Assembly: GCF_045037415.1 (NCBI RefSeq)
Contig: NZ_CP173438.1
Direction: 5' to 3' (one strand)
DNA: 64,000 bases
Source of the DNA: Escherichia coli
GTDB taxonomy: Bacteria; Pseudomonadota; Gammaproteobacteria; Enterobacterales; Enterobacteriaceae
The position numbers and the translations under genes were made by a program. Below, piece after piece: positions 2,934-11,415 of the stretch (position 1 is the stretch's first letter; each line of letters begins with the position of its first letter). The notes beneath the pieces are model-generated. The model was not told where the DNA came from. It saw only the letters and a program-made list of their open reading frames with translations, and did not search any database.

Positions 2934-4910
2934 ATGTCTGACGACATGTCTATGGGTTTGCCTTCGTCAGCGGGCGAACACGGTGTACTACGCTCCATGC
3001 AGGAGGTTGCAATGAGCTCCCAGGAAGCCAGCAAGATGCTGCGTACTTACAATATTGCCTGGTGGGGCAATAACTACTATGACGTTAACGAGCTGGGCCA
3101 CATCAGCGTGTGCCCGGACCCGGACGTCCCGGAAGCTCGCGTCGATCTCGCGCAGTTAGTGAAAACTCGTGAAGCACAGGGCCAGCGTCTGCCTGCACTG
3201 TTCTGTTTCCCGCAGATCCTGCAGCACCGTTTGCGTTCTATTAACGCCGCGTTCAAACGTGCGCGGGAATCCTACGGCTATAACGGCGATTACTTCCTCG
3301 TTTATCCGATCAAAGTTAACCAGCACCGCCGCGTGATTGAGTCCCTGATTCATTCGGGCGAACCGCTGGGCCTGGAAGCCGGTTCCAAAGCTGAGTTGAT
3401 GGCGGTGCTGGCACATGCTGGCATGACCCGTAGCGTCATCGTCTGCAACGGTTATAAGGACCGCGAATATATCCGTCTGGCATTAATTGGCGAGAAGATG
3501 GGCCACAAGGTCTATCTGGTCATTGAGAAGATGTCAGAAATTGCCATTGTGCTGGATGAAGCAGAACGTCTGAATGTCGTTCCTCGTCTGGGCGTGCGTG
3601 CACGTCTGGCTTCGCAGGGCTCCGGTAAATGGCAGTCCTCCGGCGGGGAAAAATCGAAGTTCGGCCTGGCGGCGACTCAGGTACTGCAACTGGTTGAAAC
3701 CCTGCGTGAAGCCGGGCGTCTCGACAGCCTGCAACTGCTGCACTTCCACCTCGGTTCGCAGATGGCGAATATTCGCGATATCGCGACAGGCGTTCGTGAA
3801 TCCGCGCGTTTCTATGTTGAGCTGCACAAGCTGGGCGTCAATATTCAGTGCTTCGACGTCGGCGGCGGTCTGGGCGTGGACTATGAAGGCACCCGTTCGC
3901 AGTCCGACTGTTCGGTGAACTACGGCCTCAATGAATACGCCAACAACATCATCTGGGCGATTGGTGATGCGTGTGAAGAAAATGGTCTGCCACATCCGAC
4001 GGTAATCACCGAATCGGGTCGTGCGGTGACTGCGCATCACACCGTGCTGGTGTCGAATATCATCGGCGTGGAACGTAACGAATACACGGTGCCGACCGCG
4101 CCTGCAGAAGACGCACCGCGCGCCCTGCAAAGCATGTGGGAAACCTGGCAGGAAATGCACGAACCGGGAACTCGCCGTTCTCTGCGTGAATGGTTACACG
4201 ACAGCCAGATGGATCTGCACGATATTCATATCGGCTACTCTTCCGGCACCTTTAGCCTGCAAGAACGCGCATGGGCTGAGCAGCTTTATTTGAGCATGTG
4301 CCATGAAGTGCAAAAGCAGCTGGATCCGCAAAACCGTGCTCATCGTCCGATTATCGACGAGCTGCAGGAACGTATGGCGGACAAAATGTACGTCAACTTC
4401 TCGCTGTTCCAGTCGATGCCGGATGCGTGGGGGATCGACCAGTTGTTCCCGGTTCTGCCGCTGGAAGGGCTGGATCAAGTGCCGGAACGCCGCGCTGTGC
4501 TGTTGGATATTACCTGTGACTCAGACGGTGCTATCGACCACTATATTGATGGTGACGGTATTGCCACGACAATGCCTATGCCGGAGTACGATCCGGAGAA
4601 TCCGCCGATGCTCGGTTTCTTTATGGTCGGCGCATATCAGGAGATCCTTGGCAACATGCACAACCTGTTCGGTGATACCGAAGCGGTTGACGTGTTCGTC
4701 TTCCCTGATGGTAGCGTAGAGGTAGAACTGTCTGACGAAGGCGATACCGTGGCGGACATGCTGCAATATGTGCAGCTCGATCCGAAAACGCTGTTAACTC
4801 AGTTCCGCGATCAGGTGAAGAAAACCGATCTTGATGCTGAACTGCAACAACAGTTCCTTGAAGAGTTCGAGGCAGGTTTGTACGGTTATACCTATCTTGA
4901 AGATGAATAA
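2934..4910 (+). CDS. speA: Biosynthetic arginine decarboxylase (PLP-dependent)
   Basis: 658-aa frame from [49 protein letters not shown]; the ORF track starts 4 codons upstream. Confidence 0.95.
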
Positions 4911-4927
4911 TTAAGATTATTCCGCTG

Positions 4928-4969
4928 GCGGGGCGATTTATTTACGTAAATCGGCCCGCTTTCTTTTTA
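4928..4969 (+). terminator. Rho-independent terminator after speA
   Basis: Hairpin gggcgatttatttacgtaaatcggccc followed by tttcttttt. Confidence 0.55.
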
Positions 4970-5055
4970 TATATTCTTAAAAATAATTTAGCTGCTTTTC
5001 TTATTAAATAATCTCCCTACAATCGCTGCATTAATTAAATGCAGAGGGAACGGTT

Positions 5056-5787
5056 ATGAAAAAATGGAAATTACGTAGCGCGTTGATAGCATTAGCCGTG
5101 CTGCTGGCCGGTTGTTCCAGTAATGCGCAGTATAATAGCAGTGCATCGGGTAATGTCGGCACCGCCTGGGGTGGGGATGTGCACTCAACGGTTCAGGGCG
5201 TATCTGCTGAACGAGCCTGGCGCGATCCGGCAGAGATGATCGTTATTAGTTATTCGACTAATGTTCCTTCCGGCTACGACCGCGTTTATAGTATTCGTAT
5301 TAACGAACTGGAATATGCTATTCGCGATGGTAATTTTAATTCTCTACCTATTACGCGGGTTTATGATTCATCCAATAATGAACCACGCTATATTGTCCAT
5401 GCCAGAATCGGAATGAATTATCAATTATATATCCGTAATTACAGTCGTAACACCAACTACGAGATCGTTGCTACGGTTGATGGCCTGGATGTGCTGAACG
5501 GCAAGCAAGGTTCGCTGAATAACAACGGTTATATTGTGAATGCCGGAGATTCGTTAGCGATTAAAGGATTCCGCAAAGATAAACATACCGAAGCGGCTTT
5601 TCAGTTCGCCAACGTTGCTGATTCCTACGCAGCCAATTCGGCGCAAGGCGATGTGCATAATACCGGTGTAATCGGCTTTGCCGCCTTTGAATTACAAGGC
5701 CCGGCGCAAAACGCGCTGCCGCCGTGCTCTGGACAAGCGTTTCCGGCAGATAACAATGGCTATGCGCCACCACCGTGTCGGAAATAG
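5056..5787 (+). CDS. Hypothetical lipoprotein (243 aa), no recognised domain
   Basis: Signal peptide with lipobox LLAG|C (MKKWKLRSALIALAVLLAGCSS); Asn/Tyr-rich; about 36% GC in the sampled coding stretch; own RBS and terminator. Confidence 0.65.
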   Translation: MKKWKLRSALIALAVLLAGCSSNAQYNSSASGNVGTAWGGDVHSTVQGVSAERAWRDPAEMIVISYSTNVPSGYDRVYSIRINELEYAIRDGNFNSLPITRVYDSSNNEPRYIVHARIGMNYQLYIRNYSRNTNYEIVATVDGLDVLNGKQGSLNNNGYIVNAGDSLAIKGFRKDKHTEAAFQFANVADSYAANSAQGDVHNTGVIGFAAFELQGPAQNALPPCSGQAFPADNNGYAPPPCRK

Positions 5788-5854
5788 CAACCTCGCTTGA
5801 TGCCTCGCCCATTTAAGGCGATAATTAGCACAAACTTGTGTTTCGCAAATCCAA

Positions 5855-5894
5855 CCCTTCCTCGTCGGGCCTAACGACGCGGAAGGGTTTTTTT
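5855..5894 (+). terminator. Rho-independent terminator after the lipoprotein gene
   Basis: Hairpin cccttcctcgtcgggcctaacgacgcggaaggg followed by ttttttt. Confidence 0.6.
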
Positions 5895-5922
5895 ATATCG
5901 ACTTTGTAAAAGGAGTCCATCC

Positions 5923-6843
5923 ATGAGCACCTTAGGTCATCAATACGATAACTCACTGGTTTCCAACGCCTTTGGTTTTTTACGCCTGCCGATGAACTTC
6001 CAGCCGTATGACAGCGATGCTGACTGGGTGATTACTGGCGTGCCGTTCGATATGGCCACTTCTGGTCGTGCGGGTGGTCGTCACGGTCCGGCAGCGATCC
6101 GTCAGGTTTCGACGAATCTGGCCTGGGAACACAACCGCTTCCCGTGGAATTTCGACATGCGTGAGCGCCTGAACGTCGTGGACTGCGGTGATCTGGTATA
6201 TGCCTTCGGCGATGCCCGTGAGATGAGCGAGAAGCTGCAGGCGCACGCCGAGAAGCTGCTGGCTGCCGGTAAGCGTATGCTCTCCTTCGGTGGTGACCAC
6301 TTTGTTACGCTGCCGCTGCTGCGCGCTCATGCGAAGCATTTCGGCAAAATGGCGTTGGTACACTTTGACGCCCACACCGATACCTATGCGAACGGTTGTG
6401 AATTTGACCACGGCACCATGTTCTATACCGCGCCGAAAGAAGGTCTGATCGACCCGAATCATTCCGTGCAGATTGGTATTCGTACCGAGTTTGATAAAGA
6501 CAACGGCTTTACCGTGCTGGACGCCTGCCAGGTGAACGATCGCAGCGTGGATGACATTATCGCCCAGGTGAAACAGATTGTGGGTGATATGCCGGTTTAC
6601 CTGACCTTTGATATCGACTGCCTGGATCCTGCTTTTGCACCAGGCACCGGTACGCCGGTAATTGGCGGCCTGACCTCCGATCGCGCCATTAAACTGGTAC
6701 GCGGCCTGAAAGATCTCAACATCGTTGGGATGGACGTAGTGGAAGTGGCTCCGGCATACGATCAGTCGGAAATCACCGCTCTGGCTGCGGCGACGCTGGC
6801 GCTGGAGATGCTGTATATTCAGGCGGCGAAAAAGGGCGAGTAA
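5923..6843 (+). CDS. speB: Agmatinase (agmatine ureohydrolase)
   Basis: 306 aa, [32 protein letters not shown]...; arginase-family motifs GGDHFVT and DAHTD. Confidence 0.95.
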
Positions 6844-6874
6844 GCGCCAGATAAGAGGCGCACGGGTGATGTGT

Positions 6875-7265
<391 letters not shown>

Positions 7266-7272
7266 CCATGCC

Positions 7273-8031
7273 TTACTTAACTCCATCCGCGCTCATACGA
7301 TCGCGAATATGTTGGGCGCGTTCGGCGGATGCTGGGTGGTCGTCAAACATTGAACTTTGGCGACCTTCTTCCAGTTTAGCCAGTTTTTCAAAGCTGGTGG
7401 CAAGGCCAGCCGGACTGATGCCGCGTTGGCGCAGCAAATCGTAGGAGTAATCATCGGCCTCTGCTTCCTGGCGCTGGGAGAATTGCGAATTGACTAGCTT
7501 TTCGCCCAGGTCTCCTAGTTGTGATTGTGACAAACTGCCGACAATTCCGCCTGCAGAGGCCGCCGCAACGCGAATTGCGTTTGTACCAAGTGCTACCTGC
7601 ATTCCTTTCTTCACATGGCCTAATGCCACGTGCCCCATTTCGTGACCGAGCACCGCTTCGACTTCGTTATCCGTCATCATATCCATCAGCCCGCTATAGA
7701 CGCGGATACAGCCGTTAGCCATTGCAAAGGCGTTCACATCCTTCGCCATATACACTTTGTAATTCACCGGCTGACCATTGATGTTATCGCCTAACGCGCG
7801 AGAAATTGTCGTCAGACGTTTAGCGTATTCGCTATTGGCTGGCGCAATCGTCGCCTTGCTGTCCATATCCTGACATGCCTGATCGCTCAGGGTTTTCACC
7901 TGCGCATCACTCAAACTGTAAGCCTGAAAAGCTTCCGCTCCTGATGAGAGCAGTCCACTGGAGTCCATATTCTGGCAACCAGTCAGTACCGTTGCCACGC
8001 TCATTGCTACCAATAAGGCGCGAATTTTCAT
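7273..8031 (-). CDS. loiP: Outer-membrane metalloprotease LoiP (M48 family lipoprotein)
   Basis: Start at MKIRALLVAMSVATVLTGC (lipobox); HEMGH zinc motif; 252 aa. The ORF track extends spuriously upstream to 8250. Confidence 0.92.
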   Translation of the reverse strand: MKIRALLVAMSVATVLTGCQNMDSSGLLSSGAEAFQAYSLSDAQVKTLSDQACQDMDSKATIAPANSEYAKRLTTISRALGDNINGQPVNYKVYMAKDVNAFAMANGCIRVYSGLMDMMTDNEVEAVLGHEMGHVALGHVKKGMQVALGTNAIRVAAASAGGIVGSLSQSQLGDLGEKLVNSQFSQRQEAEADDYSYDLLRQRGISPAGLATSFEKLAKLEEGRQSSMFDDHPASAERAQHIRDRMSADGVK

Positions 8032-8308
8032 GTTTTCTCTTCCGCACAAGGTCAGGATTATTCTAAAAATGCGCCATCTGCAGGTGAATTGACGCTCAAT
8101 CGAAGTATAAGGAAAAGTGCAGTGGACCGGCGAGTAGATTGCGCAACATGCGAGCATGATCCAGAGATTTCTGAAGCGGCAAAAGGATGTTCCATGTACA
8201 TGACGCGCGGCTTGCGGTAAATTGTTGGCAAATTTTCCGGCGTAGCCCAAAACGCGCTGTCGTCAAGTCGTTAAGGGCGTGCCCTTCATCATCCGATCTG
8301 GAGTCAAA

Positions 8309-10300
8309 ATGTCCTCACGTAAAGAGCTTGCCAATGCTATTCGTGCGCTGAGCATGGACGCAGTACAGAAAGCCAAATCCGGTCACCCGGGTGCCCCTAT
8401 GGGTATGGCTGACATTGCCGAAGTCCTGTGGCGTGATTTCCTGAAACACAACCCGCAGAATCCGTCCTGGGCTGACCGTGACCGCTTCGTGCTGTCCAAC
8501 GGCCACGGCTCCATGCTGATCTACAGCCTGCTGCACCTCACCGGTTACGATCTGCCGATGGAAGAACTGAAAAACTTCCGTCAGCTGCACTCTAAAACTC
8601 CGGGCCACCCGGAAGTGGGTTACACCGCAGGTGTAGAAACCACCACCGGTCCGCTGGGTCAGGGTATTGCCAACGCAGTCGGTATGGCGATTGCAGAAAA
8701 AACGCTGGCGGCGCAGTTTAACCGTCCGGGCCACGACATCGTCGACCACTACACCTACGCCTTCATGGGCGACGGCTGCATGATGGAAGGCATCTCCCAC
8801 GAAGTTTGCTCTCTGGCGGGTACGCTGAAGCTGGGTAAACTGATTGCGTTCTACGATGACAACGGTATTTCTATCGATGGTCACGTTGAAGGCTGGTTTA
8901 CCGACGACACCGCAATGCGTTTCGAAGCTTACGGCTGGCACGTTATTCGCGACATCGACGGTCATGACGCGGCATCCATCAAACGCGCAGTAGAAGAAGC
9001 GCGCGCAGTGACTGACAAACCGTCCCTGCTGATGTGCAAAACCATCATCGGTTTCGGTTCCCCGAACAAAGCCGGTACCCACGACTCCCACGGTGCGCCG
9101 CTGGGCGACGCTGAAATTGCCCTGACCCGCGAACAGCTGGGCTGGAAATACGCGCCGTTCGAAATCCCGTCTGAAATCTATGCTCAGTGGGATGCGAAAG
9201 AAGCAGGCCAGGCGAAAGAGTCCGCATGGAACGAGAAATTCGCTGCTTACGCGAAAGCTTATCCGCAGGAAGCCGCTGAATTTACCCGCCGTATGAAAGG
9301 CGAAATGCCGTCTGACTTCGACGCGAAAGCGAAAGAGTTCATTGCTAAACTGCAGGCTAACCCGGCGAAGATCGCCAGCCGTAAAGCGTCTCAGAATGCT
9401 ATCGAAGCGTTCGGGCCGCTGTTGCCGGAATTCCTCGGCGGTTCTGCAGACCTGGCGCCGTCTAACCTGACCCTGTGGTCTGGTTCTAAAGCAATCAACG
9501 AAGATGCTGCGGGTAACTACATCCACTACGGTGTACGTGAATTCGGTATGACTGCGATTGCCAACGGTATCTCCCTGCACGGTGGTTTCCTGCCGTACAC
9601 CTCCACCTTCCTGATGTTCGTGGAATACGCACGTAACGCCGTACGTATGGCTGCGCTGATGAAACAGCGTCAGGTGATGGTTTACACCCACGACTCCATC
9701 GGTCTGGGCGAAGATGGCCCGACTCACCAGCCGGTAGAGCAGGTCGCTTCTCTGCGCGTGACCCCGAACATGTCTACATGGCGTCCGTGTGACCAGGTTG
9801 AATCCGCGGTAGCGTGGAAATACGGCGTTGAACGTCAGGACGGCCCGACTGCGCTTATCCTCTCCCGTCAGAACCTGGCGCAGCAGGAACGTACTGAAGA
9901 GCAGCTGGCAAACATCGCGCGCGGTGGTTATGTGCTGAAAGACTGTGCTGGTCAGCCGGAACTGATCTTCATCGCGACCGGTTCTGAAGTTGAACTGGCT
10001 GTAGCGGCATACGAAAAATTGACTGCCGAAGGCGTGAAAGCGCGCGTGGTTTCCATGCCGTCTACCGACGCATTCGACAAGCAGGACGCGGCTTACCGTG
10101 AATCCGTACTGCCGAAAGCGGTTACCGCTCGTGTTGCGGTGGAAGCTGGCATTGCTGACTACTGGTACAAGTATGTTGGCCTGAACGGTGCTATCGTCGG
10201 CATGACCACCTTCGGTGAATCTGCTCCGGCAGAGCAGCTGTTTGAAGAGTTCGGCTTCACCGTTGACAACGTTGTTGCGAAAGCAAAAGCGCTGCTGTAA
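8309..10300 (+). CDS. tktA: Transketolase 1
   Basis: 663 aa from [41 protein letters not shown]; thiamine-diphosphate enzyme. Confidence 0.96.
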
Positions 10301-10363
10301 TCGGTAAGATGCTTTGTGAGAAGGGCCGCAAATGCGGCCCTTCAGATTGTTGGCAAAGTGCGC

Positions 10364-10457
10364 GTTGTTTATGCCGGATGCGGCGTGAACGCCTTATCCG
10401 TCCTACAAGATTTTGCAAATTCAACATATTGCAGCCTGATAAGCGTAGCGCATCAGG
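10364..10457. repeat. REP palindromic units in the tktA 3' flank
   Basis: gccggatgcggcgtgaacgccttatccgtcctac and gcctgataagcgtagcgcatcaggc palindromes. Confidence 0.8.
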
Positions 10458-10483
10458 CAGTTTTGTCTTTGCTATCAGTCTCA

Positions 10484-10508
10484 AGGGCCGCGAAAGCGGC
10501 CTTTTTTT
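10484..10508 (+). terminator. Rho-independent terminator (tktA side), overlapping the stop codon of the SPFH gene
   Basis: ggccgcgaaagcggcc hairpin followed by ttttttt. Confidence 0.6.
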
Positions 10509-11415
10509 ACTTAGTAGAGATAAACGGAACTGTGCTGCCGGGGATCATGGTATCGGGCAGTTTACCGTCCCAACGCTCAGCAGTGGTGAGGGCAACAAGT
10601 CCGGGATTCTCCCGCAGAGCTTCACCGCGCAGGCGGATAGCTTCTGCTTCAGCCGCACTTTTTAAACGAATAGTTTCAGCCTCTGCCGCGCCTCTTACGC
10701 GAATGGTCTCAGCTTCTGCTTTGGCTGCCGCCAGTTTACTGTCTGCTTCTGCCTGGGCCTGAGTTACTGCTATTTGCGCTTGGATTTTCTCTGTTTCCAG
10801 ATTTTGCTTACGTGTGGCAATGGCGACTTCTGCTTTCATTCGGTCTTCAATCGACTTTTCATAAGCGTCAGAAAAATCAATATTTTCAATCTGGACACCA
10901 TCAATCACCACCGGGCCAACAACGGCTTTACGCATTGCATTTTGCAGATCCTGAACCAGTTTTGTACGATCCTGTACCGCGCTGATGGCGGTATATTGGC
11001 CGAAAACGTTCTCCAGTTGAGTTGGCAACTGACGGACAATCAGACGATCTTTTAATGCTTCAATGGTGTTGTAGGTGGTATAAACCGCGCCTGCTTCTGA
11101 AGGTTTAATGTGGAAGCTGACTGATACCGTCATTTGTGCCGGTTGCTGGTCGCGGCTGTAGGCCTGTAATCCCTGATAGACCACAGCCTGATTACGCGTG
11201 GAAATTTTCTCTACACTTTCCATAAAAGGGATCTTAAAACCCAGCCCCGGCTCGGCAACTTTTACGATTTTTCCGTAGCGCAGCAAAATGCCGCGTTCAC
11301 CTTCATTAACGGTGTAATACGAGAGAAATGGCAGCACAACCACGGCAAGCACGCCAATGGCGATAGCAATAGATTTTTGTGGGCGAAATGAGGTTATTGA
11401 AACAGGTGCTTTCAT
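10507..11415 (-). CDS. SPFH/band-7 (prohibitin/HflC-like) membrane protein, 302 aa
   Basis: N-terminal TM segment (SIAIAIGVLAVVVLPFLSYYTV), band-7 core, C-terminal Ala/Glu-rich repeats (AEAETIRVRGAAEAETIRLKSAAEAEAIRLRGEA). Confidence 0.75.
   Translation of the reverse strand: MKAPVSITSFRPQKSIAIAIGVLAVVVLPFLSYYTVNEGERGILLRYGKIVKVAEPGLGFKIPFMESVEKISTRNQAVVYQGLQAYSRDQQPAQMTVSVSFHIKPSEAGAVYTTYNTIEALKDRLIVRQLPTQLENVFGQYTAISAVQDRTKLVQDLQNAMRKAVVGPVVIDGVQIENIDFSDAYEKSIEDRMKAEVAIATRKQNLETEKIQAQIAVTQAQAEADSKLAAAKAEAETIRVRGAAEAETIRLKSAAEAEAIRLRGEALRENPGLVALTTAERWDGKLPDTMIPGSTVPFISTK

Follow-up and report, generated by a model that had tools for sequence, protein, structure and literature searches.

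A predicted outer-membrane lipoprotein gene between speA and speB, absent from Escherichia coli K-12, belongs to a large unnamed protein family

Why do some Escherichia coli genomes carry a gene between speA and speB where K-12 has none, and what might its product do? We analysed this question in a stretch of 64,000 nt of E. coli DNA (the window; contig NZ_CP173438.1, assembly GCF_045037415.1). Here speA (biosynthetic arginine decarboxylase, 2934..4910, plus strand; open reading frame and RefSeq annotation, 100%-identical ST131 genome) and speB (agmatinase, 5923..6843, plus strand; open reading frame and RefSeq annotation, ribosome binding site AAGGAG at 5910-5915) are separated by 1,012 bp (4911-5922). 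A preliminary description had placed a lipoprotein ORF of 243 amino acids in a spacer of about 1 kb, and its coordinates and gene content were correct: the sole long ORF of the gap, 5056..5787 on the plus strand, is intact, encodes 243 aa and is annotated as a coding sequence in RefSeq. We assign a probability of roughly 0.72 to the reading that the gene is transcribed on its own and encodes a non-essential lipoprotein of the outer membrane, that this protein is one of a large unnamed family with most members in Proteobacteria, and that the gene is ancestral at this site.

The ORF is a real gene that had been annotated before; as a genome feature it is not new. Its product is identical (100%) to WP_000758881.1 of RefSeq, and at least 1,000 contigs were found to carry the exact 243-aa protein. 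In E. coli O157:H7 Sakai, ECs_3813, named 'lipoprotein', is an orthologue with 97% identity that is also located between speA and speB. Together with the UniProt entry A0A061L3B1_ECOLX these are entries of the same gene without any difference between them, and none has a tested function. Salmonella orthologues are named 'outer membrane lipoprotein'. A literature search with locus tags and accessions of the gene returned nothing informative on it.

Most genomes annotate the protein merely as 'hypothetical protein', and a third of E. coli genomes dispense with it. Both points would suit a spurious or decaying ORF without function, a reading to which we give virtually no credence. Selection on the gene is purifying (dN/dS 0.05-0.2 in comparisons with E. 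coli O157, E. whittamii, Salmonella and Klebsiella), homologues of the protein can be aligned over their full length between Escherichia and myxobacteria-like sequences, where 24 columns are invariant, the AF2 model is confident, and the lipobox is kept across nearly the whole family. The preliminary description had regarded a lack of homologues together with a lack of expression as a sign of a spurious ORF; an exhaustive search returned 4,211 representative clusters at 50% identity (E<=1e-3), mostly from Proteobacteria. An indexed search gave 280 homologues.

The N-terminus reads MKKWKLRSALIALAVLLAG followed by CSS, that is, a lipobox L-A-G-C20 and then Ser-Ser, as had been claimed. A positively charged n-region (MKKWKLR) precedes a hydrophobic h-region (SALIALAVLLAG) and the lipobox cysteine. 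The signal peptide (residues 1-19) with a lipidated Cys20 and Ser at +2, as predicted by reading the sequence, is encoded by 5056..5115 (plus strand). Cys20 is invariant in an alignment of 49 homologues, and 219 of the 250 full-length family members contain a strict lipobox ([LVI][ASTVI][GAS]C), most others having a relaxed one. In Enterobacteriaceae, Asp at +2 mediates Lol avoidance, and lipoproteins without it are sorted to the outer membrane; among the 250 full-length members examined, none carried Asp at this position. By this anatomy the precursor would be exported by Sec, lipidated at Cys20 and cleaved by signal peptidase II, and Ser at +2 would allow Lol to pass the protein to the inner leaflet of the outer membrane. 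Lipobox and conserved homologues thus bear out the claim of a genuine lipoprotein-type gene.

Is the gene a recent arrival? K-12 had been described as having speA and speB nearly adjacent, and this is the case: in MG1655, speB (3082877-3083797) and speA (3083935-3085911) are separated by a 137-bp gap without a gene, and BL21 has the same gene-free spacer of 137 bp. Distant Enterobacterales sampled, and many Enterobacteriaceae genera, also have speA-speB without the lipoprotein gene. The gene might therefore be a recent horizontal islet, with an AT-rich foreign gene inserted in this lineage and the K-12 arrangement being ancestral. We consider this highly unlikely, given how widely the site is occupied. 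The long form with the lipoprotein gene was present in 3,550 of 5,426 complete E. coli genomes (65%), the short K-12 form in 1,867. The order speA-lipoprotein-speB was found in E. whittamii, E. albertii, two cryptic Escherichia clades, Citrobacter (three cases) and Klebsiella (three cases), while in Salmonella the gene directly follows speA and an island lies between it and speB. The spacer comparison across Escherichia and Salmonella proposed in the preliminary description thus places the gene directly 3' of speA in the relatives.

Allele comparison points in the same direction. The K-12/BL21 allele has about 60 nt in place of 935 bp (window 4911-5845). It lacks the speA terminator, the AT-rich region with the putative promoter and the coding sequence, and only the speB promoter boxes are retained in the 60 nt. 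In other Escherichia species, the spacer behind the gene shows either full or 88% identity. The K-12-type spacer matches it at only 48%, close to the 53-58% found between genera. On both sides of the K-12-type junction, speA and speB display ordinary E. coli divergence without a spike beside the junction. As to the source of the 60 nt, none of 42 distinct lipoprotein-less spacers exceeded 64% identity. From these alleles, the K-12/BL21 arrangement is the derived, minority state, and K-12 lost the gene. Judged by gene order, the distribution shows that the gene was already in place immediately 3' of speA before the divergence of Escherichia, Salmonella, Citrobacter and part of Klebsiella. Since distant Enterobacterales have speA-speB without it, an ancient insertion before the split of Escherichia, Salmonella, Citrobacter and Klebsiella is plausible. 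Deeper in the tree the polarity of gain and loss is ambiguous, because the lipoprotein gene is missing from this site in many genera of Enterobacteriaceae and in every distant member of Enterobacterales sampled.

Base composition had been taken to point to horizontal acquisition, with a GC content of about 36% reported for a sampled stretch of the coding sequence. This value holds for roughly 200 nt (5256-5455, ~36-39%), but not for the whole coding sequence, which has 48.0% GC (GC3 45.5%) compared to 54.8% in speA, 55.7% in speB and 51.4% in the window. The 5' spacer (4911-5055) has 34.5%. Such values would suit a foreign gene. The lowered GC3 is common to orthologues in other genera and is therefore probably an old property of the gene, and a Variovorax homologue matches its own host (70.8%). 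At the borders of the gene, repeats were limited to short two-copy, chance-like matches and none was significant, and we detected neither IS elements nor an integrase or tRNA. True plasmid copies were not found either: all 12 'plasmid' hits were typed as non-mobilizable and were mostly Mb-scale chromosome- or chromid-like replicons. With synteny in relatives, presence in 65% of E. coli and neither mobility genes nor plasmid copies, the step from low GC to horizontal acquisition in this strain is not supported.

Loss is not confined to the K-12 type. Other alleles are disrupted by an IS1 insertion or truncated, as in Salmonella Kentucky. A truncated 174-aa allele (P0024) comprises 448 member sequences, and Shigella dysenteriae fragments of 174-181 aa in AFDB match it. 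To judge from these alleles, the gene is dispensable and has been lost or disrupted repeatedly.

The preliminary description had given the gene 'its own terminators'. Both hairpins are real, but the upstream one is the predicted terminator of speA and the downstream one a speB-leader element. The putative intrinsic speA terminator (4927..4969, plus strand) consists of a hairpin at 4927-4960 followed by TTCTTTTTA. This GC-rich hairpin with its U-tract (UUCUUUUU) is more stable than expected by chance: together with TTCTTTTT it folds at -21.7 kcal/mol (RNAfold, z -3.7). Across seven genera or species, 90.8% of the alignment cells are paired and 6 of the 14 pairs show compensatory changes, a level of covariation reached by none of 500 shuffles. 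The K-12/BL21 allele lacks this hairpin. Scanning 4700-6100 against Rfam yielded just one chance match below threshold (P31), which fell on the speA terminator.

Between this terminator and the start codon lies an AT-rich region with conserved boxes (4970..5055, plus strand). It contains a -10-like TACAAT (5018-5023), an Escherichia-specific palindrome CTGCATTAATTAAATGCAG (5026-5044) and the Shine-Dalgarno sequence AGAGGGA of the lipoprotein gene (5043-5049). TAC..T is invariant in seven species, at a conserved distance from the lipoprotein ATG. A consensus promoter scan called no promoter in this region because of a weak -35. We infer that this region would serve as the promoter of the lipoprotein gene. 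A sigma-E promoter was rejected, as inspection of the alignment by eye revealed no correctly spaced GGAACTT. Transcription of the gene probably starts from a weak promoter of its own, with the speA terminator acting as insulation from speA, and probably ends at the conserved hairpin 5' of speB. By its flanking signals the gene is probably monocistronic.

On the other side of the gene, a consensus scan detected promoter-like boxes TTGATG-17-GATAAT 5' of speB (5797..5825, plus strand). The pattern CTTGAxxC...GCGATAAT is kept in every genus, whether or not the lipoprotein gene is present. For K-12, an own, sigma-S-preferred promoter of speB has been identified experimentally (PMC3141248), to which the boxes at 5797..5825 may correspond. 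Further downstream follows a terminator-like hairpin (5853-5889) with a T7 tract (5853..5896, plus strand; -26.4 kcal/mol, z -4.5) that is identical in the K-12-type allele and matches no Rfam family. Its 21-nt core was found directly 5' of speB in 119 of 120 metagenome loci, counted on contigs carrying the speB start and including taxa with SpeB only about 80% identical. The core hardly varies, and in the outer stem A-U pairs have flipped to U-A in a compensatory manner. By its conservation, this hairpin is an ancient speB-leader element across Enterobacterales; it is not the lipoprotein gene's own, since it is also present where that gene is absent.

Conservation of the gene's place between speA and speB in at least four genera might be explained if the protein were linked to polyamines, either by binding agmatine or putrescine or by working with SpeA and SpeB. 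Amine-binding sites such as those of PotD and PotF use aromatic and acidic residues, and the invariant residues of the lipoprotein are rich in aromatics and acids (W, four Y, D and E), which is a resemblance only. Several observations make such a link quite unlikely. A covariation-supported terminator stands between speA and the lipoprotein gene, an island separates the gene from speB in Salmonella, and the gene was lost or disrupted in many lineages with intact speA and speB. Moreover, linkage to speA is restricted to Escherichia, Salmonella, Citrobacter and Klebsiella. Outside these genera, family members stand alone among housekeeping genes, in his operon, thrS/recO, DUF1161/UPF0257 and further contexts.

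What kind of protein is encoded? The preliminary description had recognised no domain, and none emerged from our searches. Pfam gave no match for the query even at E<=10 and none for 49 family members at E<=0.001, a profile search against PDB sequences at E<=10 was without match, and NCBIfam returned only signal-peptide-level matches far under the cut-offs. Among AFDB50 models, Foldseek detected 357 structural matches, every one labelled lipoprotein or uncharacterised; as these are members of the same unnamed family only, no function could be derived from the fold. The AF2 model has a pLDDT of 85 overall and exceeds 90 over residues 31-215 (5146..5700, plus strand), which form an all-beta sandwich core for which we found no close solved fold. 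T36, W38, G39, R53, Y66, Y122, N128, E136, D142, Y159, R173 and Y191 are the invariant core residues, and the most variable part of the core is encoded by the AT-rich stretch at 5256-5455.

The core is followed by a flexible C-terminal tail (5701..5784, plus strand; pLDDT 61-75) with a conserved FP-x(n)-YAPPP motif. Here F229, P230, Y236, A237, P239 and P240 are each at least 90% conserved, and 196 of 250 family members contain the motif, which is bracketed by Cys224 and Cys241 in Enterobacteriaceae. The protein had been described as Asn- and Tyr-rich with a C-terminal Pro/Cys motif. Asn makes up 9.9% and Tyr 5.8% of its residues, and the C-terminus ends in PPCSGQAFPADNNGYAPPPCRK as quoted. 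PEP-CTERM or another C-terminal sorting signal was rejected, as the tail has no hydrophobic segment. Likewise, long family members add merely low-complexity Pro/Ala-rich linkers, so that no fused domain could be found in them.

As modelled, the protein thus has a lipid anchor and a flexible tether, followed by a beta-sandwich and, at the C-terminus, by a conserved Pro-rich tail. A short disordered tether, up to about 150 residues long in other taxa, would hold the sandwich of about 185 residues. Most likely, W38, R53, Y66, Y122, N128, E136, D142, Y159, R173 and Y191 make up a surface for binding and not a catalytic site, with an envelope peptide, peptidoglycan or a glycan as the proposed ligand. 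The enteric tail (FPxD..YAPPP) is probably closed by a Cys224-Cys241 disulfide and is likely a docking motif. Our best guess from the model is that the lipoprotein acts as a non-essential, envelope-tethered binding protein.

A tethered outer-membrane lipoprotein with a disordered linker and a globular head is LpoB. Both have a lipobox, the outer-membrane sorting residue, one compact domain and a flexible linker whose length varies, by analogy and not by homology. Unlike LpoB, the protein studied here is an all-beta sandwich with an additional conserved Pro-rich C-terminal tail, and no similarity in sequence or fold was detected between them. Likeness to MATH/TRAF-type beta-sandwiches and to fungal DUF7918 exists at the level of fold class only, with sequence identities of 2-17%, Z of about 5 against solved MATH domains and no Pfam MATH match. 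We see an outside chance that the lipoprotein is the enterobacterial member of an unrecognised domain family and acts as a new outer-membrane-tethered adaptor, whose MATH-like sandwich would read periplasmic peptide motifs. If so, the target is possibly the family's own C-terminal FPxD..YAPPP(x)Y tail, with a possible tie to polyamine or envelope physiology in Enterobacteriaceae.

Inhibitors and immunity proteins such as MliC/PliC, PliG and the Rap1a/Tai4 type are also small, periplasm-facing, stand-alone envelope proteins. The lipoprotein could be an orphan immunity or inhibitor protein that neutralises an envelope-acting toxin or lytic enzyme, for instance a type VI effector, lysozyme or bacteriocin. 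In nine neighbourhood look-ups (one empty) no recurrent partner was detected except in Comamonadaceae, where the homologue is followed after 5-10 nt on the same strand by a gene for a secreted protein of 115-122 aa; in one of two examples this adjoining gene had a weak Pfam match to Rap1a (type VI immunity). Non-synonymous evolution of the lipoprotein is about ten times faster than that of its neighbours, and its distribution is patchy with repeated losses, as would also fit immunity. Against this, no effector gene adjoined it in any context examined, PADLOC returned no matches, and differences within E. coli are few and conservative. The protein is single-copy, and the core and tail motifs are deeply conserved across several classes, mostly of Proteobacteria, which is more like a housekeeping envelope role. 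We thus regard an immunity function as unlikely and prefer a binding protein of the envelope.

In itself, the speA–speB lipoprotein is a presence/absence polymorphism of an annotated hypothetical lipoprotein, an ordinary genome feature. In addition, the nearly invariant speB-leader hairpin across Enterobacterales could bear on speB regulation. A conserved, predicted outer-membrane lipoprotein of two-thirds of complete E. coli genomes, of Salmonella and of some Citrobacter and Klebsiella species appears never to have been studied, and in this respect K-12 does not represent the 'normal' E. coli envelope well. Since Pfam, NCBIfam and PDB have no entry for this large family with its confidently predicted fold, a structure or a phenotype would annotate thousands of proteins.

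The gap between speA (ending at 4910) and speB (starting at 5923) measures 1,012 bp and holds a single long open reading frame (ORF, 5056..5787, plus strand) for a protein of 243 amino acids. Its N-terminus, MKKWKLRSALIALAVLLAG|CSS, comprises a basic n-region, a hydrophobic core and the lipobox L-A-G-C20 with Ser at +2, and is thus predicted to be a textbook lipoprotein-type signal. The protein ends in PPCSGQAFPADNNGYAPPPCRK and is enriched in both Asn (9.9% of residues) and Tyr (5.8%). Two hairpins with U-tracts flank the gene: hairpin 1 on the speA side (4927-4960, -21.7 kcal/mol, z -3.7) and hairpin 2, followed by T7, on the speB side (5853-5889, -26.4 kcal/mol, z -4.5). Coordinates, sequence and folding energies agree with the preliminary description of ORF, lipobox and hairpins. 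The GC content of about 36% claimed there applies to a part only, since values of 36-39% are confined to ~5256-5455, while the entire coding sequence has 48.0% GC (GC3 45.5%), compared to 54.8% for speA, 55.7% for speB and 51.4% for the window. The spacer upstream of the gene has 34.5% GC.

A spurious ORF was among the alternatives that we weighed. The dN/dS ratio of the gene was 0.20 in comparison with O157, 0.07 with E. whittamii, 0.055 with Salmonella and 0.12 with K. aerogenes, and its dN was about tenfold the value for speA or speB. That is, the lipoprotein appears constrained, yet fast-evolving. An indexed search returned 280 homologues (E<=0.001); when searched exhaustively with a profile, the family comprised 4,211 clusters (50% identity) at E<=1e-3, 3,289 of them at E<=1e-10. 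Nearly all organism-named homologues belong to alpha-, beta- and gamma-proteobacteria, plus myxobacteria. Aligning 49 diverse members revealed 24 invariant columns, among them C20, T36, W38, G39, R53, Y66, Y122, N128, E136, D142, Y159, R173 and Y191. Judged by its sequence, the ORF is a real gene. It has no recognisable domain, as the preliminary description had held: Pfam gave no match for the protein even at E<=10 and none for the 49 family members at E<=0.001, NCBIfam yielded signal-peptide-level matches only, PADLOC had no match, and PDB sequences, searched with a profile, gave none at E<=10.

K-12 had been described as having speA and speB nearly adjacent, and indeed the speA-speB gap of MG1655 is geneless and spans only 137 bp. 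The gap in BL21 is likewise 137 bp long and geneless. A survey of 5,426 complete E. coli genomes found the long, gene-carrying spacer (80% of it or more) in 3,550 and the short K-12-type spacer in 1,867; in the small remainder are genomes with partial or IS-disrupted copies. Purifying selection goes together with dispensability. ST131 genomes match the window at 100% identity and list the gene product as WP_000758881.1, 'hypothetical protein', and in O157 Sakai the gene is ECs_3813, 'lipoprotein'. The exact 243-aa protein occurs on at least 1,000 public contigs, with a generic name every time. As a sequence feature the gene is therefore already known. Disrupted alleles were also seen: a 174-aa form (protein cluster P0024, 448 member sequences) matches 174-181-aa Shigella dysenteriae fragments in the predicted-structure database AFDB (A0A090NIM7, A0A0A6ZYV3), Salmonella Kentucky has a shortened allele (cluster P0052 is among the disrupted alleles listed), and E. 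coli GN25 (NZ_CP139196.1, genome match H15) carries an IS1 insertion in the gene.

The order speA-lipoprotein-speB is found in Citrobacter freundii, C. gillenii, C. portucalensis, Klebsiella aerogenes and K. spallanzanii as well as in E. whittamii and two cryptic Escherichia lineages. In E. albertii the gene lies directly upstream of speB, on a contig that stops inside it. In Salmonella enterica it directly follows speA, and where speB is expected stands a block of genes (5886-10732 of comparison locus L004) including a GntR-family regulator, a mannitol dehydrogenase, a zinc alcohol dehydrogenase and an Ldh_2 protein; the lipoprotein gene and speB are thus set apart by an island there. A metagenome scan for speA-speB loci anchored on hairpin 2 added syntenic orthologues with 50-71% identity at seven loci of other genera. 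The same scan found speA-speB without the gene in many other Enterobacteriaceae genera and in all sampled distant Enterobacterales (SpeB ~80% identical). Orthologues have a GC3 of 49-51% versus 65-74% for their own speA, so the low GC3 goes far back in the gene's history and does not mark a recent arrival. At the gene's borders we found neither significant direct repeats nor mobility genes, and the only matches labelled as plasmids were non-mobilizable records, mostly Mb-scale and chromosome- or chromid-like.

Owing to same-site orthologues, shared low GC3 and the lack of mobility traces, a recent islet, horizontally acquired by this strain relative to K-12 as had been proposed, fails as an explanation; horizontal acquisition is conceivable in deep time only. 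Rather, the gene is ancestral at the speA-speB locus in Escherichia, and K-12 is the odd one out. The most economical history would start with an ancient insertion that entered between the speA stop codon and the speB promoter, in an ancestor shared by genera of the Escherichia, Salmonella, Citrobacter and Klebsiella type. Repeated losses would have come later, and some E. coli would have acquired a short allele that is derived. We consider the identity of the gene and this evolutionary account highly likely. The preliminary observation thus stands, and its interpretation does so in part.

More than a simple deletion sets the K-12-type allele apart: starting at the speA stop codon, ~60 nt stand where the window has 4911-5845. 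These 60 nt share only 48% identity with the 60 nt after the lipoprotein gene, a stretch over which E. whittamii matches the window at 100% and E. albertii at 88%. The speA and speB flanks of BL21 show ordinary E. coli divergence without a spike at the junction, and no donor was traceable among 42 other spacers (identity <=64%). By eye, the segment (1441-1500 of BL21 locus L001) forms two small hairpins, seemingly kept by compensatory changes. Insertions that differ by lineage gather downstream of the speA stop, ahead of the speB promoter or hairpin: one taxon (L135) has a 140-aa Gly-rich ORF between speA and hairpin 2, C. freundii a ~125-bp insert between the -10 box and hairpin 2 (L005 ~5790-5915), and several Enterobacteriaceae spacers contain palindromes resembling REP and terminator types. 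Beyond speB, the gap to loiP is 429 bp in the window and 205 bp in BL21, about two copies fewer of a 113-bp tandem repeat (6869-7264, 3.5 copies, 95% match) made of REP/BIME-like palindromic units.

The two hairpins had been taken for the gene's own terminators. They do flank it with their U-tracts, but hairpin 1 is the speA terminator (90.8% of cells pair in an alignment of seven species, with both-sided changes in 6 of 14 pairs; the K-12-type allele lacks it), and hairpin 2 also occurs, in identical form, in gene-free K-12 and BL21. A sub-threshold Rfam match to the Pseudomonas sRNA P31 (4928-4977, minus strand; 26 bits versus a gathering threshold of 40, E 0.027) lies on the speA terminator hairpin and was judged chance. 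In Escherichia, Citrobacter and Klebsiella, hairpin 2 is near-invariant, including its loop. The 21-nt core of this hairpin immediately precedes speB on every contig that includes the speB start (119/120 metagenome loci), even in taxa whose SpeA and SpeB share no more than ~85% and ~80% identity with the E. coli proteins. Across Enterobacterales, loop and inner stem are essentially invariant, while the outer stem shows compensatory flips and the U7-8 tail is kept. Almost everywhere it is preceded by CTTGAAyC-N17-GCGATAAT; in the window, promoter boxes TTGATG-17-GATAAT lie upstream of speB at 5797-5825. A sigma-S-preferred promoter of its own has been reported for K-12 speB (PMC3141248). No Rfam family covers hairpin 2. 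Combining a promoter with a downstream terminator-like hairpin whose loop is invariant, 5797-5896 looks like a speB leader/attenuator or factor-binding element and not like a plain terminator.

Outside Enterobacteriaceae, homologues are solitary amid housekeeping genes, for example beside thrS and recO, a GntR-family regulator gene and recO, or DUF1161 and UPF0257. No neighbour recurred across taxa in the neighbourhoods examined, so guilt by association yields no function. A polyamine-linked role, which the position between speA and speB might suggest, was weighed as a rival reading; linkage to polyamine genes is confined to one clade. In Variovorax-type Comamonadaceae the homologue sits between hisD and hisC inside the his operon (L009 6001-7205, L013 6001-7171), and a gene for a 115-122-aa secreted two-Cys protein follows 5-10 nt downstream on the same strand. 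One of two such proteins has a weak Pfam match to Rap1a (type VI immunity); an orphan immunity or inhibitor protein was weighed as well, and we rank it below the binding function proposed here.

AlphaFold2 with the 49-sequence alignment gave a model (pLDDT 85, pTM 0.76) with a tether-core-tail architecture: an all-beta core (residues 31-215, pLDDT >90) between a linker (19-29) and a C-terminal tail (216-243), both of low confidence. Longer members only add Pro/Ala/Ser-rich linkers of up to ~150 residues between lipid anchor and core. The protein has the features of a lipoprotein-type precursor: a strict lipobox occurs in 219 of 250 full-length members, and Asp at +2 in none. The core motif VDG[LVI]DV is present in 232 of the 250 and the C-terminal FP..(Y/F)AxPP tail in 196. 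Many non-enteric members finish this tail with PPxY; enterics finish it with PP(x)C and have a second Cys upstream. We propose that the precursor would be exported by Sec, processed by Lgt/Lsp/Lnt and delivered by Lol to the inner leaflet of the outer membrane. There, a flexible tether would hold a beta-sandwich whose invariant aromatic and charged residues may make up a surface that binds an envelope ligand. Docking could be the task of the Pro-rich tail, probably closed by a disulfide in enterics. Such a 'binding module' is our best available guess on function, with roughly one chance in three of being correct. The speB-leader hairpin merits separate attention, and the lipoprotein itself represents an unnamed family that is large and foldable.
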